This document shows, piece by piece, positions 13,485 to 44,763 of a stretch of DNA of 64,000 nucleotides. The stretch lies in the NCBI RefSeq assembly GCF_051903065.1, contig NZ_CP178438.1; one strand, 5' to 3'. The first letter of the stretch is position 1, and each line of letters begins with the position of its first letter. The position numbers were made by a program, and so were the translations under genes. Origin of the DNA: Escherichia coli (GTDB taxonomy: Bacteria; Pseudomonadota; Gammaproteobacteria; Enterobacterales; Enterobacteriaceae). Below the pieces are notes generated by a model. The model was not told where the DNA came from. It saw only the letters and a list, made by a program, of their open reading frames with translations, and did no database searches.

Positions 13485-14529
13485 ATTTCAGCGTCCGACG
13501 CTGGCAGAAAATATCAGTATGCTCCGTAACGATTTATTCGCCAGGCTGGATGTCAGCGACACGCTCCGGCGCATGGATGAAGACGTGCGGGCAATGGTGT
13601 ATGCGGCGGCGCTGCATACGGTTTACGGGTACATCGATTATCTGGCAATGAACATGCTGCCTGACCTGTGCGATGAGTCCTGGCTGGCGCGACATGCTGC
13701 GATGAAACGGTGTCCGCGCAAGGGGGCCACGGCTGCCAGCGGGTATATGCGCTGGGAAGGTGTCAGCGATGGCCTGAAGGTGACCGCCGGGAGTGTTATT
13801 CAGCGCGATGACCTGGTGCAGTACACGGCAACTGCCGATGCAACCAGCTCCGGTGGTGTCCTGCGCGTGCCGATCGCCTGCTCAAGTGCAGGCGCGGTCG
13901 GTAACGCTGACGACGGTACGGCATTAATCCTGGTCACGCCGGTGAATGGTCTGCCGTCTTCCGGTGTGGCTGACACCCTGACAGGCGGATTTGATACTGA
14001 AGAGCTGGAAACGTGGCGCGCCCGCGTCATTGAGCGGTATTACTGGACGCCGCAGGGCGGGGCTGACGGGGACTATGTCGTCTGGGCTAAAGAAGTGCCC
14101 GGCATTACCCGCGCATGGACATACCGTCACTGGATGGGAACGGGGACTGTCGGTGTGATGATTGCCAGCAGCGACCTGATTAATCCCATTCCGGAAGAAT
14201 CAACGGAAACGGCGGCAAGACAACATATCGGGCCACTGGCTCCGGTGGCAGGCTCTGATTTGTATGTGTTCAGGCCGGTGGCACATACGGTGGATTTTCA
14301 TATCCGCGTTACGCCGGATACACCGGAAATACGAGCCGCCATCACCGCGGAGTTGCGTTCGTTCCTGTTGCGTGATGGTTATCCGCAGGGAGAACTGAAG
14401 GTATCGCGTATCAGTGAGGCGATTTCCGGTGCAAACGGGGAATACAGCCATCAGTTGCTTGCACCGGCGGACAATATCTCCATTGCAAAAAATGAACTGG
14501 CGGTTCTGGGGACGATTTCATGGACGTGA
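13471..14529 (+). CDS. baseplate J-like protein (Mu gp47)
   Basis: 352-aa ORF, synteny between gpW-like and gpI-like genes. Confidence 0.7.
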
Positions 14530-15104
14530 CAAACGATGATTACATCCGTCTGTTGTCGGCACTGTTGCCCCCCGGTCCGGCGTGGTCAGCCAGCGATCCG
14601 GCGATTGCCGGTGCGGCACCTTCATTAACTCGTGCTCATCAGCGTGCGGATGCCCTGATGCGGGAGCTGGATCCGCGCACCACCACTGAACTGATAAACC
14701 GCTGGGAGCGTCTGTGCGGTCTGCCGGATGAATGTATTCCCGCAGGGACACAGACCCTTCGCCAGCGTCAGCAACGGCTGGATGCGAAGGTTAACCTGGC
14801 GGGCGGCATCAACGAGGATTTTTATCTTGCACAGCTTGCTGTCCTGGGCAGACCAGATGCCACCATCACGCGATACGACAAAAGCACGTTCACCTGCTCA
14901 TCGGCCTGTACTGACGCTGTGAACGCGCCTGAATGGCGGTATTACTGGCAGGTCAACATGCCAGCCGCCACCAACACCACCTGGATGACATGTGGCGATC
15001 CCTGTGATTCCGCACTGCGTATCTGGGGCGACACAGTTGTCGAATGTGTGCTTAACAAACTCTGCCCGTCGCATACCTACGTAATTTTTAAATATCCGGA
15101 GTAA
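14520..15104 (+). CDS. tail protein (Mu gp48 / P2 gpI-like)
   Basis: 194-aa ORF, synteny immediately upstream of tail fibre gene. Confidence 0.6.
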
Positions 15105-17373: not shown

Positions 17374-17928
17374 ATGCTTATTGGCTATGTACGTGTGTCA
17401 ACAAATGACCAGAACACAGATCTACAACGTAATGCGCTGAACTGTGCAGGATGCGAGCTGATTTTTGAAGACAAGATAAGCGGTACAAAGTCCGAAAGGC
17501 CGGGACTGAAAAAACTGCTCAGGACATTATCGGCAGGTGACACTCTGGTTGTCTGGAAGCTGGATCGGCTAGGGCGTAGTATGCGGCATCTGGTCATTCT
17601 GGTTGAGGAGTTGCGCGAACGTGGCGTTAATTTTCGCAGCCTGACGGATGCTATTGATACCAGCACACCGATGGGGCGTTTTTTCTTTCATGTGATGGGT
17701 GCCCTGGCTGAAATGGAACGAGAACTGATTGTTGAACGAACAAAAGCTGGACTGGAAGCTGCTCGCGCACAGGGACGAATTGGTGGACGTCGTCCCAAAC
17801 TTACACCAGAACAATGGGCGCAGGCCGGGCGATTAATTGCATCAGGCGTTCCTCGCCAGAAGGTGGCGATCATCTATGATGTTGGTATATCGACACTGTA
17901 TAAGAAGTTTCCGGTCGGAGATAAATGA
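17374..17928 (+). CDS. site-specific DNA invertase, serine recombinase (Pin/Gin/Hin family)
   Basis: N-terminus MLIGYVRVSTNDQNTDLQ with catalytic Ser; AGGGAG RBS; C-terminal HTH; located beside the invertible segment. Confidence 0.9.
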   Translation: MLIGYVRVSTNDQNTDLQRNALNCAGCELIFEDKISGTKSERPGLKKLLRTLSAGDTLVVWKLDRLGRSMRHLVILVEELRERGVNFRSLTDAIDTSTPMGRFFFHVMGALAEMERELIVERTKAGLEAARAQGRIGGRRPKLTPEQWAQAGRLIASGVPRQKVAIIYDVGISTLYKKFPVGDK

Positions 17929-17966
17929 AACCGTAGCACGTCGTATGCAAGATCGTGCTGCGGTTT
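17928..17966. repeat. hairpin-forming repeat A (13-bp arms, 13-nt loop), probable terminator-like element
   Basis: AAACCGTAGCACG-N13-CGTGCTGCGGTTT directly after invertase stop; imperfect direct copy at 18947-18983. Confidence 0.5.
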
Positions 17967-17985
17967 ATGCTTATCACTTAAAGAC

Positions 17986-18855
<870 letters not shown>

Positions 18856-18946
18856 CTAATCCTTTGAATTTACATAGTAAAAAAGATACTTTTCCTCATA
18901 GTGTGAGCTAATTTTATGTTTCGTTTGATGATCGGACCGGTCTCAA

Positions 18947-18983
18947 AAACCGCAGGCACGTTGTATGCAAGAACGTGCTGTGG
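18947..18983. repeat. repeat B, degenerate copy of repeat A
   Basis: AAACCGCAGGCACGTTGTATGCAAGAACGTGCTGTGG; about 36 of 41 positions match repeat A by hand alignment. Confidence 0.45.
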
Positions 18984-19318
18984 CTGGCTGGTGAACTTCC
19001 AATAGTGCGAATATTGAATGATTTCTATCTGTTATAGATTTTACCGTATTTCGGCATGAATGAAACTGAATATCCTCCCACCGATTCTCCATGACTTTAC
19101 GCCACTGTCTCTAGGGCTGCTATGTGCCAGAGGCGGACGTTGTTAAAATAGAAAATATCCCAACCTTGTATGAGTCGTGCAATAATTTCGAACTTTATAC
19201 AAAGCTTTGGTTGTAAAGGTGTATAACCACAAGTGACATTAATCACATTTGTAAAGGCAAAATGCAACAAACTGAATTAGTTAATTGCGTAAATTTGAAG
19301 TTATGTTAAGGTGGTGAT

Positions 19319-19451
19319 GGTTTATGGGCAGATTTTGGGTCGCGTTTCGCGATCAGTGAAAAAAATGTCCGATAGGATTGCCTTTCAGGATCTCATGTTC
19401 CTCGCATTTCTTAAGGTTCTTGTCAAGTTTGCGTAAGAGTGCCCATAAACC
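19319..19451 (+). ncRNA. candidate retron msr/msd non-coding RNA bounded by a1/a2 inverted repeats
   Basis: Perfect 12-bp inverted repeat GGTTTATGGGCA (19319-19330) / TGCCCATAAACC (19440-19451), the latter 19 nt upstream of the RT start; internal hairpin TCGCG-TTT-CGCGA at 19340-19352. Confidence 0.4.
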
Positions 19452-19470
19452 CTTTTAGAGGCGATCTAAA

Positions 19471-21306
19471 GTGAAACGACTACAATCATTAAAAGAAGCA
19501 AAAACAAAACCAGACTTGGCTAAGCTATTAGGAATCAAACCTTCAGCGTTAACATACTGCCTATATGTATTAAAACCTGAAAATCAATACACACAGTTTA
19601 AGATACCAAAAAAAAATGGCGGCGAACGGATAATAAGTGCACCTAACGGAATATTAAAGACGATACAGTCATCCTTATCAAGACTGCTTCTAGATTGCTT
19701 AGACGAAATAGTTTGCATTAAGTTTCCAGACTCAGAGTTAGCAAGGCAGAAAGCAAAAAACTCAAAAATATTAAAGTTAAAATGTTCCAACTCAGAAATC
19801 AAACAACCCTCACTGTCTCATGGATTTGAAAGAAAGCGTTCAATTATTACAAATGCAATGATGCACTTGGGGAAAAAATATGTTTTTAATATAGACTTGG
19901 ATAATTTTTTCGGCAGTTTTAACTTTGGTAGAGTCCGAGGTTTTTTCATAAAAAATAGAAACTTTGCACTCGATCCGGAAATCGCAACTGTAATTGCTAA
20001 AATTGCGTGCTACAACAATGAACTACCCCAAGGCAGCCCATGCTCCCCAGTAATCACTAATCTAATCACTCACTCGTTAGACATTAAACTGGCAGCGATT
20101 GCATCAAGAAACTCATCCACTTTTACAAGATATGCTGATGATATTACATTCTCTACGAGGAAGGGGGAGTTTCCTTCTGCTATAGCAAAAAATCAAAATG
20201 GTAAATATATCGTTAGTAAGAAAATTAGGGGCGAGATAACTCGCTCAGGTTTTATAATTAATGATGGGAAGACAAGAAATCAGTATAAAGACTCGAGGCA
20301 AGATGTAACAGGCTTAGTGGTTAATAAAAAGCCAAACACGAAAAAAGAATATTGGAGGCTTGTGCGTGCGCAATGTGACCATTTATTTAAACATGGTGAG
20401 TTCTTAGAGGTGATTGACGGCAAGGAAATAAAGGGGAATGTTAATAGCCTTGCAGGCAAACTTAACTTCATAGACCAAGTTGACCACTATAATAGATTGC
20501 GTCAAGGCGAAAAATTAAATCCAAAATATCACTTAAAAAAAGATGCCAATAAAAATGGCCATGCCAAAAAAAGGCGTTACTTACATAGTTCTAGAGAAAA
20601 AACGTTTAGTGAGTTTCTCTTCTATCGTTTATTTTATGGCAATGAATTACCAACAATTCTTACGGAAGGTAAAACTGACAATATTTATCTGAAGGCAGCA
20701 ATACATAAGTTAGCCTCATCATTCCCTAATTTGGCGGTCGCTGAAAGTCCAGGGCTCTCTTATAAGCCACGGACTAAATTTGTTAACTACAATGAGCGGA
20801 CAAAATATTTACTTGAACTTTATGGTGGTGCTGATTATTTAAAGGATTTTGTTATTCATTATAAACAACACTTTAATCGTTATAAGGCTCCCAAACCATC
20901 TAATCCAGTAATTATACTTGTTGATAATGATAGCGGACCAAAAGATCTGATTAATTACGTTAGTAAAGTTGATAATATTGGTATTTTCCCCACAGGTGTT
21001 CCAGATATCCGCGCCTCTGAGTTTGTACATATTTTTTGTAATCTTTATTTAGTGCTTACCCCTCAAGTTAAGGGATATACAGGAACTGATATAGAGCATT
21101 TTTTTAAAGATACAGATCGACTTAGACCACATAAAGGTAAGTTTTTCAATACAGTCTCTAAGCGTGATCATGATAATGATTTGAGCAAGGAATCTTTCGC
21201 AACTCATATTGTTCATGCCCACAAGCATGAAATTGATTTTAGTGGATTTACAAGCCTGTTAGAACGGTTAGTAAAAGTCATAAATCACTTTGACACTGTT
21301 AAGTAA
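19471..21306 (+). CDS. retron-type reverse transcriptase fused to a C-terminal Toprim domain (Retron-Eco2/Ec67-like architecture)
   Basis: 611 aa; NAMMH (NAxxH) at about 128-132, motif A NIDLDNFF, QGSPCSP, YADD at 221-224, VTG at 279-281; C-terminal TEGKTD and DND motifs suggestive of Toprim; GTG start after AGAGG. Confidence 0.8.
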   Translation: MKRLQSLKEAKTKPDLAKLLGIKPSALTYCLYVLKPENQYTQFKIPKKNGGERIISAPNGILKTIQSSLSRLLLDCLDEIVCIKFPDSELARQKAKNSKILKLKCSNSEIKQPSLSHGFERKRSIITNAMMHLGKKYVFNIDLDNFFGSFNFGRVRGFFIKNRNFALDPEIATVIAKIACYNNELPQGSPCSPVITNLITHSLDIKLAAIASRNSSTFTRYADDITFSTRKGEFPSAIAKNQNGKYIVSKKIRGEITRSGFIINDGKTRNQYKDSRQDVTGLVVNKKPNTKKEYWRLVRAQCDHLFKHGEFLEVIDGKEIKGNVNSLAGKLNFIDQVDHYNRLRQGEKLNPKYHLKKDANKNGHAKKRRYLHSSREKTFSEFLFYRLFYGNELPTILTEGKTDNIYLKAAIHKLASSFPNLAVAESPGLSYKPRTKFVNYNERTKYLLELYGGADYLKDFVIHYKQHFNRYKAPKPSNPVIILVDNDSGPKDLINYVSKVDNIGIFPTGVPDIRASEFVHIFCNLYLVLTPQVKGYTGTDIEHFFKDTDRLRPHKGKFFNTVSKRDHDNDLSKESFATHIVHAHKHEIDFSGFTSLLERLVKVINHFDTVK

Positions 21307-21365
21307 TATTATGATGCGCACTGATTATTCCTTATTCAGCTAAAATTTCTGGTAATGACTCCAAC

Positions 21366-21869
21366 TTATTGATAGTGTTTTATGTTCAGATAATGCCCGA
21401 TGACTTTGTCATGCAGCTCCACCGATTTTGAGAACGACAGCGACTTCCGTCCCAGCCGTGCCAGGTGCTGCCTCAGATTCAGGTTATGCCGCTCAATTCG
21501 CTGCGTATATCGCTTGCTGATTACGTGCAGCTTTCCCTTCAGGCGGGATTCATACAGCGGCCAGCCATCCGTCATCCATATCACCACGTCAAAGGGTGAC
21601 AGCAGGCTCATAAGACGCCCCAGCGTCGCCATAGTGCGTTCACCGAATACGTGCGCAACAACCGTCTTCCGGAGCCTGTCATACGCGTAAAACAGCCAGC
21701 GCTGGCGCGATTTAGCCCCGACATAGCCCCACTGTTCGTCCATTTCCGCGCAGACGATGACGTCACTGCCCGGCTGTATGCGCGAGGTTACCGACTGCGG
21801 CCTGAGTTTTTTAAGTGACGTAAAATCGTGTTGAGGCCAACGCCCATAATGCGGGCTGTTGCCCGGCAT
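21366..21869 (-). CDS. insB: IS1 InsB
   Basis: 167-aa ORF matching the remembered IS1 InsB sequence. Confidence 0.9.
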
Positions 21870-22063
21870 CCAACGCCATTCATGGCCATATCAATGATTT
21901 TCTGGTGCGTACCGGGTTGAGAAGCGGTGTAAGTGAACTGCAGTTGCCATGTTTTACGGCAGTGAGAGCAGAGATAGCGCTGATGTCCGGCGGTGCTTTT
22001 GCCGTTACGCACCACCCCGTCAGTAGCTGAACAGGAGGGACAGCTGATAGAAACAGAAGCCAC
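21788..22063 (-). CDS. insA: IS1 InsA
   Basis: 91-aa ORF matching the remembered IS1 InsA sequence (zinc-finger CPSC...CSHC). Confidence 0.9.
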
Positions 22064-22382
22064 TGGAGCACCTCAAAAACACCATCATACACTAAATCAG
22101 TAAGTTGGCAGCATCACCCCCTTTTCGTATATGCTAACCGTGAGCGGGAGTGAACAAGTCACCATAGCCAGGAACACTAGCGGCGTAATTCTTAAGCTGA
22201 GTGGCATTTCACCTGCGGTTTATCAGTGCATTCATAGTACCTTCATCAGCCAGATTGAACGAGTCAGCTTAGAATTTGCTGGCGAGGTTGTCACTATGAA
22301 GCATGAGAGTTACCTCAATGTTTATATAAGGATTCGGTCCCCATACCTGGAACGGTAACTCTCAATCTGATCGGTTCCTGAG

Positions 22383-24071
22383 TCAGTTCAAATCACGACT
22401 CATTTTTTTCGCTCTCACCGGCATCCCATTTGCCACAAAATATCCCGCCGTGCTCCTCGGCAACGCTCCCTGTCCACGAATCATGTCCGCTATTTTCTCG
22501 CCAATCATAATTGTCGTGGCGTTCAAATTCCCGGTGATAATCTGCGGCATAATTGACGCATCCACCACGCGCAGGCCTTCCAGCCCATGCACGCGGCCTT
22601 CGCCGTCAACCACTGCCATCTCGTCATAACCCATTTTGCAGGTACCGCACGGGTGGAAGGCGGTTTCGGCGTGGTTACGCACGAACTCATCGAGTTGCTC
22701 ATCCGTCTGACATTCCGTGCCGGGGCTGATTTCGCGGCCACGATACTGATCCAGCGCCGGTTGATGCATGATCTCGCGGGTGATGCGAATTGCGTCGCGG
22801 AACTCCTGCCAGTCCTGCTCGTGCGACATGTAGTTAAACAGAATCGCCGGATGCTGGTGCGGGTCGCGGGATTTAATCCGCACATGCCCACGGCTTGGCG
22901 AGCGCATCGATCCGACGTGGCACTGGAAGCCGTGCTCTTTCACTGCATTCGAGCCGTTATAGTTAATCGCTACCGGCAGGAAGTGATACTGAATATTCGG
23001 CCACGCAAATTCCTCTCGGCTGCGAATAAATCCGCCTGCTTCAAAGTGGTTGCTGGCACCAACGCCGGTGCCGCCAAACAGCCACTCCGCACCGATTTTC
23101 GGCTGATTCCACCACTGCAGGGCAGGGTAGAGGGAAACCGGTTCTTTGCACTCATATTGCAGATACATCTCCAGATGATCCTGAAGATTTTCACCGACGC
23201 CGGGTAAATCATGCACCAGCGGAATATCAAACTCCGCCAGCAGTTCAGCGCTACCCACGCCGGAACGTTGCAGGATCTGCGGAGAGGCGATCGCACCTGC
23301 ACATAACAGCACCTCTTTATTCGCTGTCGCGCGGGTTGGAATGGTGCTGTCGCCTTCCTGCCACTCGACGCCCACCGCGCGTTTGCCGTCAAAAATGATG
23401 TGATCGGTCATAGCGCGAGTACGAATGGTCAGGTTAGGGCGCGATTTGGCCTGATCGAGATAGCCGCGCGCGGTACTGGCGCGACGGCCCTGCGGCGTGA
23501 CGGTGCGATCCATCGGACCAAAACCTTCCTGCTGATAACCGTTGAGATCGTCCGTGCGCGGGTAGCCCGCCTGCACGCCCGCTTCAATCATCGCTTCAAA
23601 CAGCGGATTGACGCCGGGTTTGGAGGTAGTGACGCTCACCGGGCCATCGCCACCGTGGTAGTCGTTCTCGCCCACATCGCGAGTCTCGGCCTTGCGGTAG
23701 TAGGGCAGGCAGTCGAGATAACTCCAGTTCTCCAGACCGGGTTCTTGCGCCCAGTTATCGAGATCCAGCGCATTGCCACGGATGTAGCACATGCCGTTGA
23801 TCAGCGACGATCCACCCAGACCTTTACCGCGTCCGCACTCCATGCGGCGGTTATTCATAAACGGTTCAGGTTCCGTTTCATAGGCCCAGTTGTAGCGTTT
23901 ACCCTGTAGCGGGAATGCCAGGGCAGCGGGCATCTGGGTGCGGAAGTCAAAGCGATAGTCCGGGCCGCCCGCTTCAAGCAGCAGCACGGAGGTATTCGGA
24001 TCTTCAGTCAGACGGGTAGCGAGAACGTTGCCGGCTGAGCCGGCACCAATAATGATGTAGTCAAATTGCAA
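22383..24071 (-). CDS. betA: choline dehydrogenase
   Basis: Translation matches BetA ([20 protein letters not shown]...); apparent TTG start 5 nt after AGGAGG, because the supplied ORF extends upstream without an in-frame ATG. Confidence 0.9.
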
Positions 24072-28320: not shown

Positions 28321-28334
28321 TTGTTATTGCATAA

Positions 28335-28370
28335 AACCGCGCCATGTCTGCATATGGCGCGGTTTCTCTT
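28335..28370 (+). terminator. rho-independent terminator of betT
   Basis: AACCGCGCCAT-N8-ATGGCGCGGTT perfect 11-bp stem followed by TCTCTT. Confidence 0.55.
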
Positions 28371-29195
28371 ACCTCTTGATACGTTATATCTGTACGGTTA
28401 AGCCCTTAGTATCGATTGATGATTGCCAGGCAACAGATAATAAAAAAGAAAAGAACTATTGAAGCCCAAAACCTACATTTGGACTGTTGTGAATGTTCAA
28501 TAAGCTTAGTCTTATTTAATGTAAATATTGGTGCTAATTTGAAATGACGATTTATTCATGGGGAACGCGTAGCGCAAATCAACTAAAATCAATGTAACCG
28601 TTTGTTGTTTAAGGTTTAATTGTCTGTGTCTGATATTTTATTGATTGTTTTAAATATTGTTTTTATTGTCATTGTTATAATGTTGGCTATCTATTGCTGA
28701 ATGGATTCAGTCTTAAAAGGCAGGTTGTTAAGGGATAGGCATAGAGTAATGACGTGTATGCATAACCAACATCTTTACTCATTATGTCATTGAATGTTGA
28801 CGCTATGCGTTTATGAGGTTGAGGTATTTTCAGTTGATCTGGATTGTTAAATTCATATAATGCGCCTTTACTCATGAGTGGGCATCAATACGTAGTGGGA
28901 AATTATAAATATCGAAATAGTCCAACTACTTCTTTATTACCAAAAATGAGTATCTGAATTTTAATATTGCATTCTTGCGTGATTATCTCCTGAGTTTGAC
29001 TTGTGATTACCTTTTTAAGGTATTTAGCGTAACTGTTTTTGAGCGAGCATCAGAGGTAAAGATAATCTTCTTGATAGTGATGTGGGATGTTATACGTATG
29101 GCATCGCTAATGTTTATGGTTACCCCTTATGTGTGCTCAGGAATCCACAGGTAATCACTCATACTGAACAGCGATAAAAGATAAAAGGTGTGTTC

Positions 29196-36568: not shown

Positions 36569-36581
36569 CCTACATGTTCAT

Positions 36582-37046
36582 GCCGGATGCGGCGTGAACG
36601 CCTTATCCGGCCTACGAATGGCGCAAGAATCTGTAGGCCTGATAAGCGTAGCGCATCAGGCATTTGTCACCATTGCCGGATGCGGCGTGAACGCCTTATC
36701 CGGCCCACGAATGGCACGAGAATCTGTAGGCCTGATAAGCGTAGCGCATCAGGCATTTGTCACCATTGCCGGATGCGGCGTGAACGCCTTATCCGGCCTA
36801 CGAATGGCGCAAGAATTGTAGGCCTGATAAGCGTAGCGCATCAGGCATTTGTCACCATTGCCGGATGCGGCGTGAACGCCTTATCCGGCCCACGAATGGC
36901 ACGAGAATTTGTAGGCCTGATAAGCGTAGCGCATCAGGCATTTGTCACCATTGCCGGATGCGGCGTGAACGCCTTATCCGGCTTACGAGTGGCACGAGAA
37001 TTTGTAGGCCTGATAAGCGTAGCGCATCAGGCAATTTGGCGTTGGT
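36582..37046. repeat. tandem REP/BIME array, 5 units of about 93 bp
   Basis: Five near-identical tandem units each containing GCCGGATGCGGCGTGAACGCCTTATCCGGCCTAC and GTAGGCCTGATAAGCGTAGCGCATCAGGC palindromic units. Confidence 0.85.
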
Positions 37047-43706: not shown

Positions 43707-44763
43707 GGCTTTGTTGAATAAATCGAACTTTTGCTGAGTTGAAGGATCAGATCACGTATCTTCCCGACAACGCAGACCGTTCCGTGGCAAAGCAAAAGTT
43801 CAAAATCACCAACTGGCCCACCTACAATAAAGCCCTCATCAACCGTGGCTCCATAACTTTCTGGCTGGATGATGAAGCTATTCAGGCCTGGTATGAGTCA
43901 GCAACACCTTCTTCACGAGGCAGACCTCAGCGCTATTCTGACCTTGCCATCACGACTGTGCTGGTCATTAAACGCGTATTCAGGCTGACCCTGCGCGCTG
44001 CGCAGGGCTTTATTGATTCCATTTTTTCTCTGATGAACGTTCCGCTACGCTGCCCGGATTACAGCTGTGTCAGCAGGCGGGCAAAGTCGGTTAATGTCAG
44101 TTTCAAAACGCCCACCCGGGGTGAAATCGCACACCTGGTAATTGATTCCACCGGGCTGAAGGTCTTCGGTGAAGGCGAGTGGAAAGTCAAAAAGCATGGC
44201 CAGGAACGCCGCCGTATCTGGCGTAAGCTGCATCTCGCCGTTGACAGTAAAACACATGAAATCATCTGCGCTGACCTGTCGCTGAACAACGTTACGGACT
44301 CAGAGGCCTTCCCCGGGTTAATCCGGCAAACCCACCGGAAAATCAGGTCAGCCGCCGCCGATGGCGCTTACGATACCCGGCTATGTCACGATGAACTGCG
44401 GCGTAAGAAAATCAGCGCGCTTATCCCTCCCCGAAAAGGTGCGGGTTACTGGCCCGGTGAATATGCAGACCGTAACCGTGCAGTGGCTAATCAGCGAATG
44501 ACCGGGAGTAATGCGCGGTGGAAATGGACAACAGATTACAACCGTCGCTCGATAGCGGAAACGGCGATGTACCGGGTAAAACAGCTGTTCGGGGGTTCAC
44601 TGACACTGCGTGACTACGATGGTCAGGTTGCAGAGGCTATGGCCCTGGTACGAGCGCTGAACAAAATGACGAAAGCAGGTATGCCTGAAAGCGTGCGTAT
44701 TGCCTGAAAACACAACCCGCTACGGGGGAGACTTACCCGAAATCTGATTTATTCAACAAAGCC
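43707..44763 (+). mobile_element. IS903-type insertion sequence (IS5 family, 1057 bp) with 9-bp target-site duplication TCCCCGATG
   Basis: 18-bp terminal inverted repeats GGCTTTGTTGAATAAATC at 43707-43724 and 44746-44763; identical 9-mers at 43698-43706 and 44764-44772; left-end sequence matches the remembered Tn903/IS903 end. Confidence 0.85.
43784..44707 (+). CDS. IS903-type DDE transposase (GTG start, 307 aa)
   Basis: ORF 43739-44707; GTG at 43784 gives the 307-aa length I recall for IS903 transposase. Confidence 0.8.
   Translation: MAKQKFKITNWPTYNKALINRGSITFWLDDEAIQAWYESATPSSRGRPQRYSDLAITTVLVIKRVFRLTLRAAQGFIDSIFSLMNVPLRCPDYSCVSRRAKSVNVSFKTPTRGEIAHLVIDSTGLKVFGEGEWKVKKHGQERRRIWRKLHLAVDSKTHEIICADLSLNNVTDSEAFPGLIRQTHRKIRSAAADGAYDTRLCHDELRRKKISALIPPRKGAGYWPGEYADRNRAVANQRMTGSNARWKWTTDYNRRSIAETAMYRVKQLFGGSLTLRDYDGQVAEAMALVRALNKMTKAGMPESVRIA

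Follow-up and report, generated by a model that had tools for sequence, protein, structure and literature searches.

The window, a 64,000-nucleotide stretch of an Escherichia coli chromosome (contig NZ_CP178438.1), shares 99.99% identity with the E. coli 23CRST031 chromosome (NZ_AP045800.1), from which it differs by two single-C indels. Its start falls inside the large terminase gene of a prophage, which continues from left to right through head and tail genes of a contractile tail, an invertible tail-fibre segment with pinE, the PD-T4-3 defence gene, and the gene for a retron reverse transcriptase (RT); this order is based on the RefSeq annotation and on our own checks of open reading frames and protein families. 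The retron is followed by a complete IS1, by a short intergenic remnant, and by betA. The features at this junction are listed below by their window coordinates.

17986 to 18759, minus strand: PD-T4-3 defence gene (GIY-YIG, LEM-3-like), from PADLOC (PD-T4-3, E=2.7e-140) and the RefSeq annotation of a near-identical genome
19471 to 21306, plus strand: retron reverse transcriptase gene (RT-Toprim, type I-C, Ec67 family), from the ORF list, the RefSeq product and PADLOC
21307 to 21350, plus strand: AT-rich 3′ flank of the retron, 44 bp, ending in AAAATTTCT; the left deletion breakpoint lies between 21350 and 21351
21351 to 22118, minus strand: complete IS1 (IS1A type), 768 bp; both terminal inverted repeats, insA, insB and the A6C frameshift site are present, and no target-site duplication flanks it
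22119 to 22382, no strand assigned: ipbA(fimX)-betA intergenic remnant, 264 bp, starting with CCCTTTTCG; the right (older) junction lies between 22118 and 22119
22383 to 24071, minus strand: betA (choline dehydrogenase), intact, the first gene kept on the right (RefSeq, ORF list)

The gene order of the source genome ahead of the window is fadE...dinB...pepD-gpt-frsA-crl-phoE-proB-proA-tRNA-Thr(thrW)-integrase-early genes-holin/endolysin/Rz1-terminase. The integrase, a tyrosine recombinase, stands directly beside the intact tRNA-Thr gene, as expected at the attL end of a prophage integrated at thrW, and the holin, endolysin, and Rz1 genes precede the terminase gene; all of these lie outside the window. 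The initial annotation had pointed out that integrase, attachment site, and lysis genes are lacking between the retron and betA. This is literally true but uninformative, because the integrase and lysis genes lie upstream of the window start. At the distal end of the prophage, the direct repeat of the tRNA 3′ end that would constitute attR is missing: the thrW att core occurs nowhere in the window, not even as its last 15 nt, and the search for an intact attR between IS1 and betA was negative. Some prophage genes are flagged as frameshifted or partial by RefSeq in NZ_AP045800.1 (small terminase, RusA, a LexA-like gene, YmfQ, and DUF2570), flags that may stem from sequencing errors in homopolymers and not from decay.

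The right-end cargo of the prophage is a two-gene defence islet, composed of PD-T4-3 and a type I-C RT-Toprim retron, directly after the pinE/tail-fibre segment. The RT open reading frame is intact, has the same length in strain EP91B, and is the last prophage gene ahead of the breakpoint; it matches the PADLOC family RT-Toprim_I-C over its full length (residues 1-609, E=3.9e-222) and carries the fusion of the RT to a Toprim nuclease domain that defines retron type I-C. An Rfam scan of positions 17800-22600 returned no match to a retron RNA family. The same approach gave a sub-threshold match to CssrB (Shigella chromosomal sRNA B) at 17906-17962, between pinE and the PD-T4-3 gene, which is probably due to chance (32 bits against a gathering score of 76, E=6.6e-4). 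IS1 begins 44 bp past the RT stop codon, at the end of a flank of 34% GC, and a terminator and promoter scan around the junction yielded nothing relevant above shuffled expectation. The AT-rich DNA 3′ of the retron has been struck by IS1 independently in TUM2820 and EP91B and may be a local IS1 hot spot. In TUM2820 (8541-8703 of the extracted locus), an IS1 variant lies 26 bp upstream of the position of the window breakpoint, and another IS1 truncates the RT; in EP91B, an IS1 with a normal target-site duplication (TSD) lies 822 bp downstream of it (14323-15090 of the extracted locus).

The IS1 itself is undamaged. Its left boundary is the IRR end, GGTAATGACTCC... (in longer form GGTAATGACTCCAACTTATTGATAG...), and its right boundary the IRL end, ...GGCAGCATCACC (in longer form ...ACTAAATCAGTAAGTTGGCAGCATCACC); each end pattern occurs once in the window with 0 mismatches, and none is expected by chance. 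The element thus has both the length of about 768 bp and the imperfect terminal inverted repeats (GGTGATGCTGCCAACTTACTGAT and GGTAATGACTCCAACTTATTGAT) of IS1. The transposase is encoded on the minus strand, and translation in three frames showed that InsA is intact, that the A6C motif lies at position 307, and that the InsB frame is open, so that insA and insB′ are joined through the −1 programmed frameshift at A6C that is typical of IS1; RefSeq likewise labels the element as an IS1A transposase with programmed frameshift. The window copy is 100% identical to the IS1 of E. coli KL53. In KL53, ykgH is split by IS1 (positions 6003-6770 of the extracted locus), likewise without target duplication (GTAAAGCT.. 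against TCCAGCCTT), and approximately 18 nt of ykgH are unaccounted for, another case in this part of the chromosome of an IS1 copy with a little DNA lost beside it.

To the right of the junction, 264 bp of intergenic DNA lead to the intact betA-betB-betI and betT genes, and the BetA protein accession is the same as in strain ECNB21-M121. Further downstream, the source genome reads betT-pdeL-yahB...yahO-IS903B-prpR-prpBCDE-codBA-cyn-lac-mhp. The ehaA autotransporter gene, located between betT and pdeL in E. coli HS and D8, is absent at window positions 28321-29189, as in K-12-like strains, which is an ordinary presence/absence polymorphism. Between yahG and yahI, a tandem array (36581-37038) contains 4.9 copies of a 93-bp unit with 95% matches; the units resemble REP/BIME palindromic elements, and RefSeq calls small hypothetical open reading frames there. 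A second insertion sequence, an IS903B of 1,057 bp with 33-nt imperfect terminal inverted repeats and a transposase marked as frameshifted by RefSeq, lies between yahO and prpR (43707-44763) and, unlike the window IS1, represents a simple insertion with a clean 9-bp duplication.

IS1-family elements are normally bordered by an 8-9 bp direct duplication of their target, and none is present at 21351-22118. The 9-mer to the left of IS1 is AAAATTTCT (21342-21350) and that to the right is CCCTTTTCG (22119-22127). A search for repeats of 8-10 bp across the flanks, in which either end was shifted by up to 3 bp, found no match, and the two 25-nt flanks have no k-mer in common longer than a 5-mer, which is wrongly positioned. 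With the same definition of ends, perfect 9-bp duplications were recovered for an IS1 in E. coli HS (CAGCCTGTA), an IS1 in EP91B (AGGTTGTTG), and the IS903B of the window at 43707-44763 (TCCCCGATG); the absence of a duplication from the window IS1 is therefore real and does not stem from a boundary error. The initial annotation, which had described intact IS1 ends between differing 9-mers and had named a more precise definition of the ends as a possible source of contradiction, is borne out by the end patterns, the shifted-end search, and the controls. The mismatch between AAAATTTCT and CCCTTTTCG implies that the present flanks do not derive from one simple insertion, and the identity of the element as IS1 is unaffected by it.

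The arrangement from which these flanks derive is evident from relatives without an insertion sequence at these sites, in which the retron flank and the betA flank are not adjacent. On the left, the retron 3′ flank runs uninterrupted up to the exact breakpoint in 15 other genomes, and in EP91B and PK8276, which retain the uninterrupted prophage end, AAAATTTCT is followed by 285 bp of prophage and then by a 46-nt copy of the thrW 3′ end, i.e., attR. On the right, the alignments with HS, D8, and GDSC2227PM begin precisely at the first base of CCCTTTTCG (22119); in these three genomes, the sequence starting with CCCTTTTCG is single-copy and is preceded by the ipbA(fimX)-hyxR-hyxA-hyxB island and ykgH. 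These intact sites sustain the proposal that a rearrangement, with IS1 at its junction, fused prophage cargo to the region 3′ of betA. In PK8276, the DNA beyond attR comprises a second integrase island, paoABCD, yagU, ykgJ, ecpRABCDE, ykgL/M/O/R, fdeC, rclABC/R, ykgEFG, ykgH, and betA, and 44,354 bp separate the breakpoint from the end of betA, with ipbA-hyx absent from this strain. Compared with typical E. coli, the present strain lacks the whole attR-to-betA interval, namely the second integrase island, paoABCD, yagU, ykgJ, ecpRABCDE, ykgLMOR, fdeC, rclABCR, ykgEFG, ykgH, and ipbA-hyx. Compared with these relatives, the prophage itself has lost only about 330 bp at the breakpoint, attR included, and most of the deleted DNA belongs to the second island and to chromosomal genes. 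The suggestion that the right arm of the prophage had been removed must hence be abandoned, as the integrase and lysis genes are located upstream of the window and attR lies only 285 bp plus 46 nt beyond the breakpoint in the relatives.

The initial annotation had left the choice between a deletion and an inversion, and two lines of evidence select the former. The outside markers, from fadE to thrW on the left and from betT to mhp on the right, stand in standard E. coli order and orientation. Moreover, the interval is missing from the chromosome. The full retron-IS1-betA junction occurs in two of 5,426 complete genomes, 23CRST031 and its sister isolate 23CRST027, and genomes were searched with a query of 11 interval probes of 240-300 bp appended to a strain-specific anchor: the 280 bp after AAAATTTCT; paoC, ecpC, ykgM/O, fdeC, rclA, ykgF, ykgH, hyxB, and hyxR; and the ipbA-betA DNA before CCCTTTTCG. 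In the 23CRST027 and 23CRST031 chromosomes, this query matched at a single place, the anchor itself, against a median of six places per genome. The interval is thus gone from the chromosome records and no reciprocal junction exists there. An inversion would have produced such a junction (ipbA-side...CCCTTTTCG, IS1, AAAATTTCT...attR), and both of its unique halves are absent from the chromosome; the proposed search for a second IS1 with the complementary flanks therefore came back empty. With collinear outside markers and a missing interval, the genome comparisons confirm the junction as a deletion, not an inversion, in which IS1 joins the retron cargo to the DNA 3′ of betA.

Rearrangement between two IS1 copies by inversion or translocation, with the missing flanks carried by a second IS1 elsewhere, would be compatible with the mismatched flanks taken alone. 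It is contradicted by the standard gene order and orientation on both sides and by the absence of nine interval genes, of the 280 bp next to attR, and of the DNA between ipbA and betA, which refutes it at the level of the chromosome record, and we consider it very improbable. Scarcely any credence can be given to a false contig join across the IS1 repeat. Insertion sequences are classic misassembly points, and the two single-C indels suggest long-read homopolymer noise; however, two complete genomes deposited separately both contain the junction, 768 bp are readily spanned by long reads, the interval genes are missing from the whole chromosome rather than misplaced, and ECNB21-M121, sequenced elsewhere, has the same right junction.

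ECNB21-M121 (NZ_CP083585.1) is the only further genome among the 5,426 in which IS1 joined to CCCTTTTCG and betA is found as one uninterrupted match. COL60J, the GN04 strains, and AZ 191 were rejected as carriers of this right junction, since their multi-piece, longer-spanning matches represent IS1 at other positions. From IS1 through yahG, ECNB21-M121 differs from the window by 1 mismatch in 14,268 bp, with the IS1 identical at 768 of 768 positions; to the left of thrW, a single mismatch occurs over 6.6 kb, and the proBA-crl-gpt region encodes identical proteins. The left flank of its IS1 is different, consisting of a DLP12-like lysis cassette that ends in ...GGAGTATA, again without a duplication. 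This Rz-IS1 junction was found in ECNB21-M121 alone and is absent from the source genome, where its presence would have demonstrated an exchange between IS1 copies. All probes from pao to ipbA are absent from ECNB21-M121, which still has an attR core together with the second integrase island at a distance of 18.4 kb from IS1. The thrW prophages of the source genome and ECNB21-M121 have structural genes of 97-98% identity, unrelated early regions and cargo, and nearly identical chromosomal flanks. Since the IS1-betA joint is common to both, the left flanks differ, and the chromosome to the left of thrW is near-identical, the betA-side junction predates the retron-side junction. The simplest reading of these alignments is that IS1 already lay beside betA in the common ancestor with ECNB21-M121 and that the retron-side joint would be later and private to the 23CRST clone. 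The pattern in ECNB21-M121 also fits stepwise erosion from a fixed IS1 anchor.

The left segment in ECNB21-M121 comprises 11 kb of DLP12-like DNA (partial O, P, emrE, ybcK...essD-rrrD-Rz) with IS1 at one edge and, at the other, an IS903B whose end is identical to that of the window IS903B; the 2 kb nearest IS1, which contain the lysis genes, match nowhere else in its chromosome. Schemes with one or two inversions, constructed by hand to place this segment between thrW and betA, did not reproduce the arrangement.

The best explanation of the window junction is a deletion anchored on a pre-existing IS1 264 bp 3′ of betA, most likely generated by transposase-driven adjacent deletion, a reading to which we give about an even chance. 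IS1 would have inserted at CCCTTTTCG, in the ipbA-betA intergenic region, in the ancestor common to ECNB21-M121. The IRR end of this copy would then, in the 23CRST027/031 lineage, have attacked a target on the same molecule and joined AAAATTTCT, 44 bp past the RT stop codon; the intervening DNA would have left as a circle, and IS1 and its betA-side flank would have stayed in place. The loss would have comprised the final 285 bp of the prophage, attR (the thrW 3′ copy), and whatever then separated attR from IS1. The size of the last step depends on the immediate ancestor: with an arrangement like that of ECNB21-M121, about 19 kb would have been removed, and with an intact interval about 45-50 kb. 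The compared genomes directly show the deletion with its breakpoints and polarity, as well as the content that is missing, whereas we infer the transposase mechanism and the number of steps. Adjacent deletion is favoured because it accounts for the mismatched flanks in one step, because the anchoring IS1 pre-existed, and because ECNB21-M121 has a second left flank without TSD on the same IS1 copy. In the long-term evolution experiment (LTEE), all 14 large deletions associated with insertion sequences arose from a pre-existing element followed by adjacent deletion, sometimes extended later, and both adjacent deletion and recombination between identical elements are named as frequent causes of missing TSDs (PMC11708052).

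The latter process is the principal competitor, since adjacent deletion and IS1-IS1 recombination both leave one IS1 with mismatched flanks. Two directly oriented IS1 copies, one at CCCTTTTCG and a later one at AAAATTTCT with its own TSD, would have undergone a RecA-mediated crossover to give one hybrid IS1. This is a distinct possibility, though we would sooner doubt it than accept it. It predicts what is observed, i.e., a single IS1, mismatched flanks, collinear markers, and no reciprocal junction; partners are plentiful in a genome with approximately 36 IS1 matches; and a prior insertion at AAAATTTCT is plausible because IS1 has hit the retron 3′ flank more than once in other lineages (TUM2820, EP91B). 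Its status as a named frequent cause of missing TSDs also speaks for it (PMC11708052). By contrast, it requires two steps, insertion and crossover, where adjacent deletion requires one, and no genome among the 5,426 has IS1 at AAAATTTCT together with a TSD. More generally, an ancestral IS1 with an intact TSD at either AAAATTTCT or CCCTTTTCG was found in none of the 5,426 genomes, and no intermediate genome was found among them. Chimerism is also lacking, as the IS1 at the junction does not differ from its counterpart in ECNB21-M121, a weak objection given that IS1A copies are usually identical. An intermolecular origin has been considered as well, in which a donor retron prophage with IS1, arriving in a single import by transduction, conjugation, or transformation, recombined through homology on the thrW/proA side and through the resident betA IS1 and so replaced the interval. 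The differing thrW prophages on near-identical chromosomal flanks do imply prophage replacement in one lineage; nevertheless, none of the 5,426 genomes is a donor type with IS1 at AAAATTTCT, curing and re-lysogeny or phage-phage recombination would be simpler, and import adds assumptions and explains nothing more, which makes it improbable. Import, inversion, and misassembly remain unlikely even when combined.

Adjacent deletion by IS1, the reading preferred here, has well-known precedents: the classic cases are said to be those of the gal region from Reif and Saedler in 1975, and Turlan and Chandler reportedly traced IS1 adjacent deletions in 1995 to intramolecular replicative transposition. 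The window junction resembles such deletions in that an intact IS1 is kept, one flank is fixed and also found in a relative, the other is replaced by distant DNA, the interval is lost, no TSD is present, and the new joint lies in AT-rich DNA. It differs in that the mechanism is read here from the end product, and IS1-IS1 recombination gives the same product. A further parallel is provided by the grounded cryptic prophages of E. coli, in which the distal att site has been lost by a deletion linked to an insertion sequence and the integrase and attL are kept at a tRNA gene. The window prophage similarly keeps its integrase and the thrW attL without a distal att site, although it is near-complete: its early, lysis, head, tail, and cargo genes are all in place, and the loss amounts to only about 330 bp. 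The IS150 deletions of the LTEE are alike in starting from the end of a pre-existing element, in being extended stepwise at times, and in the diagnostic absence of a TSD; they concern IS150 of the IS3 family and are time-resolved, whereas the present case concerns IS1 and its order is deduced from one sister genome (PMC11708052).

The deletion accounts for about 45-50 kb of DNA present in most E. coli but missing from this clone (among it the ECP common pilus, pao, rcl, ykgEFG/lut, ykgMO, fdeC, and fimX/hyx), and it explains a thrW prophage without a right attachment site beside intact genes for the retron RT, PD-T4-3, and betA. The element, the signature without TSD, and both candidate mechanisms are textbook knowledge; the locus is an ordinary strain-specific structural variant with no new element or mechanism, and the RefSeq genomes already carry the annotations of IS1, the retron, and betA. 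Its relevance lies chiefly in annotation and strain biology, as a worked example of a missing TSD as the signature of a deletion by an insertion sequence and of a sister genome that dates junctions. For the prophage, precise excision is predicted to be impossible after the loss of attR; with an integrase and attL alone, it would probably be unable to leave precisely, and the PD-T4-3 and retron cargo would be fixed in the chromosome. It is conceivable, albeit tentative, that the long-lived betA IS1 has been the anchor for successive erosion and rebuilding of the hypervariable thrW-betA interval, the last step of which locked the prophage in. If true, the locus would be a snapshot of phage-borne defence genes becoming permanent host genes.
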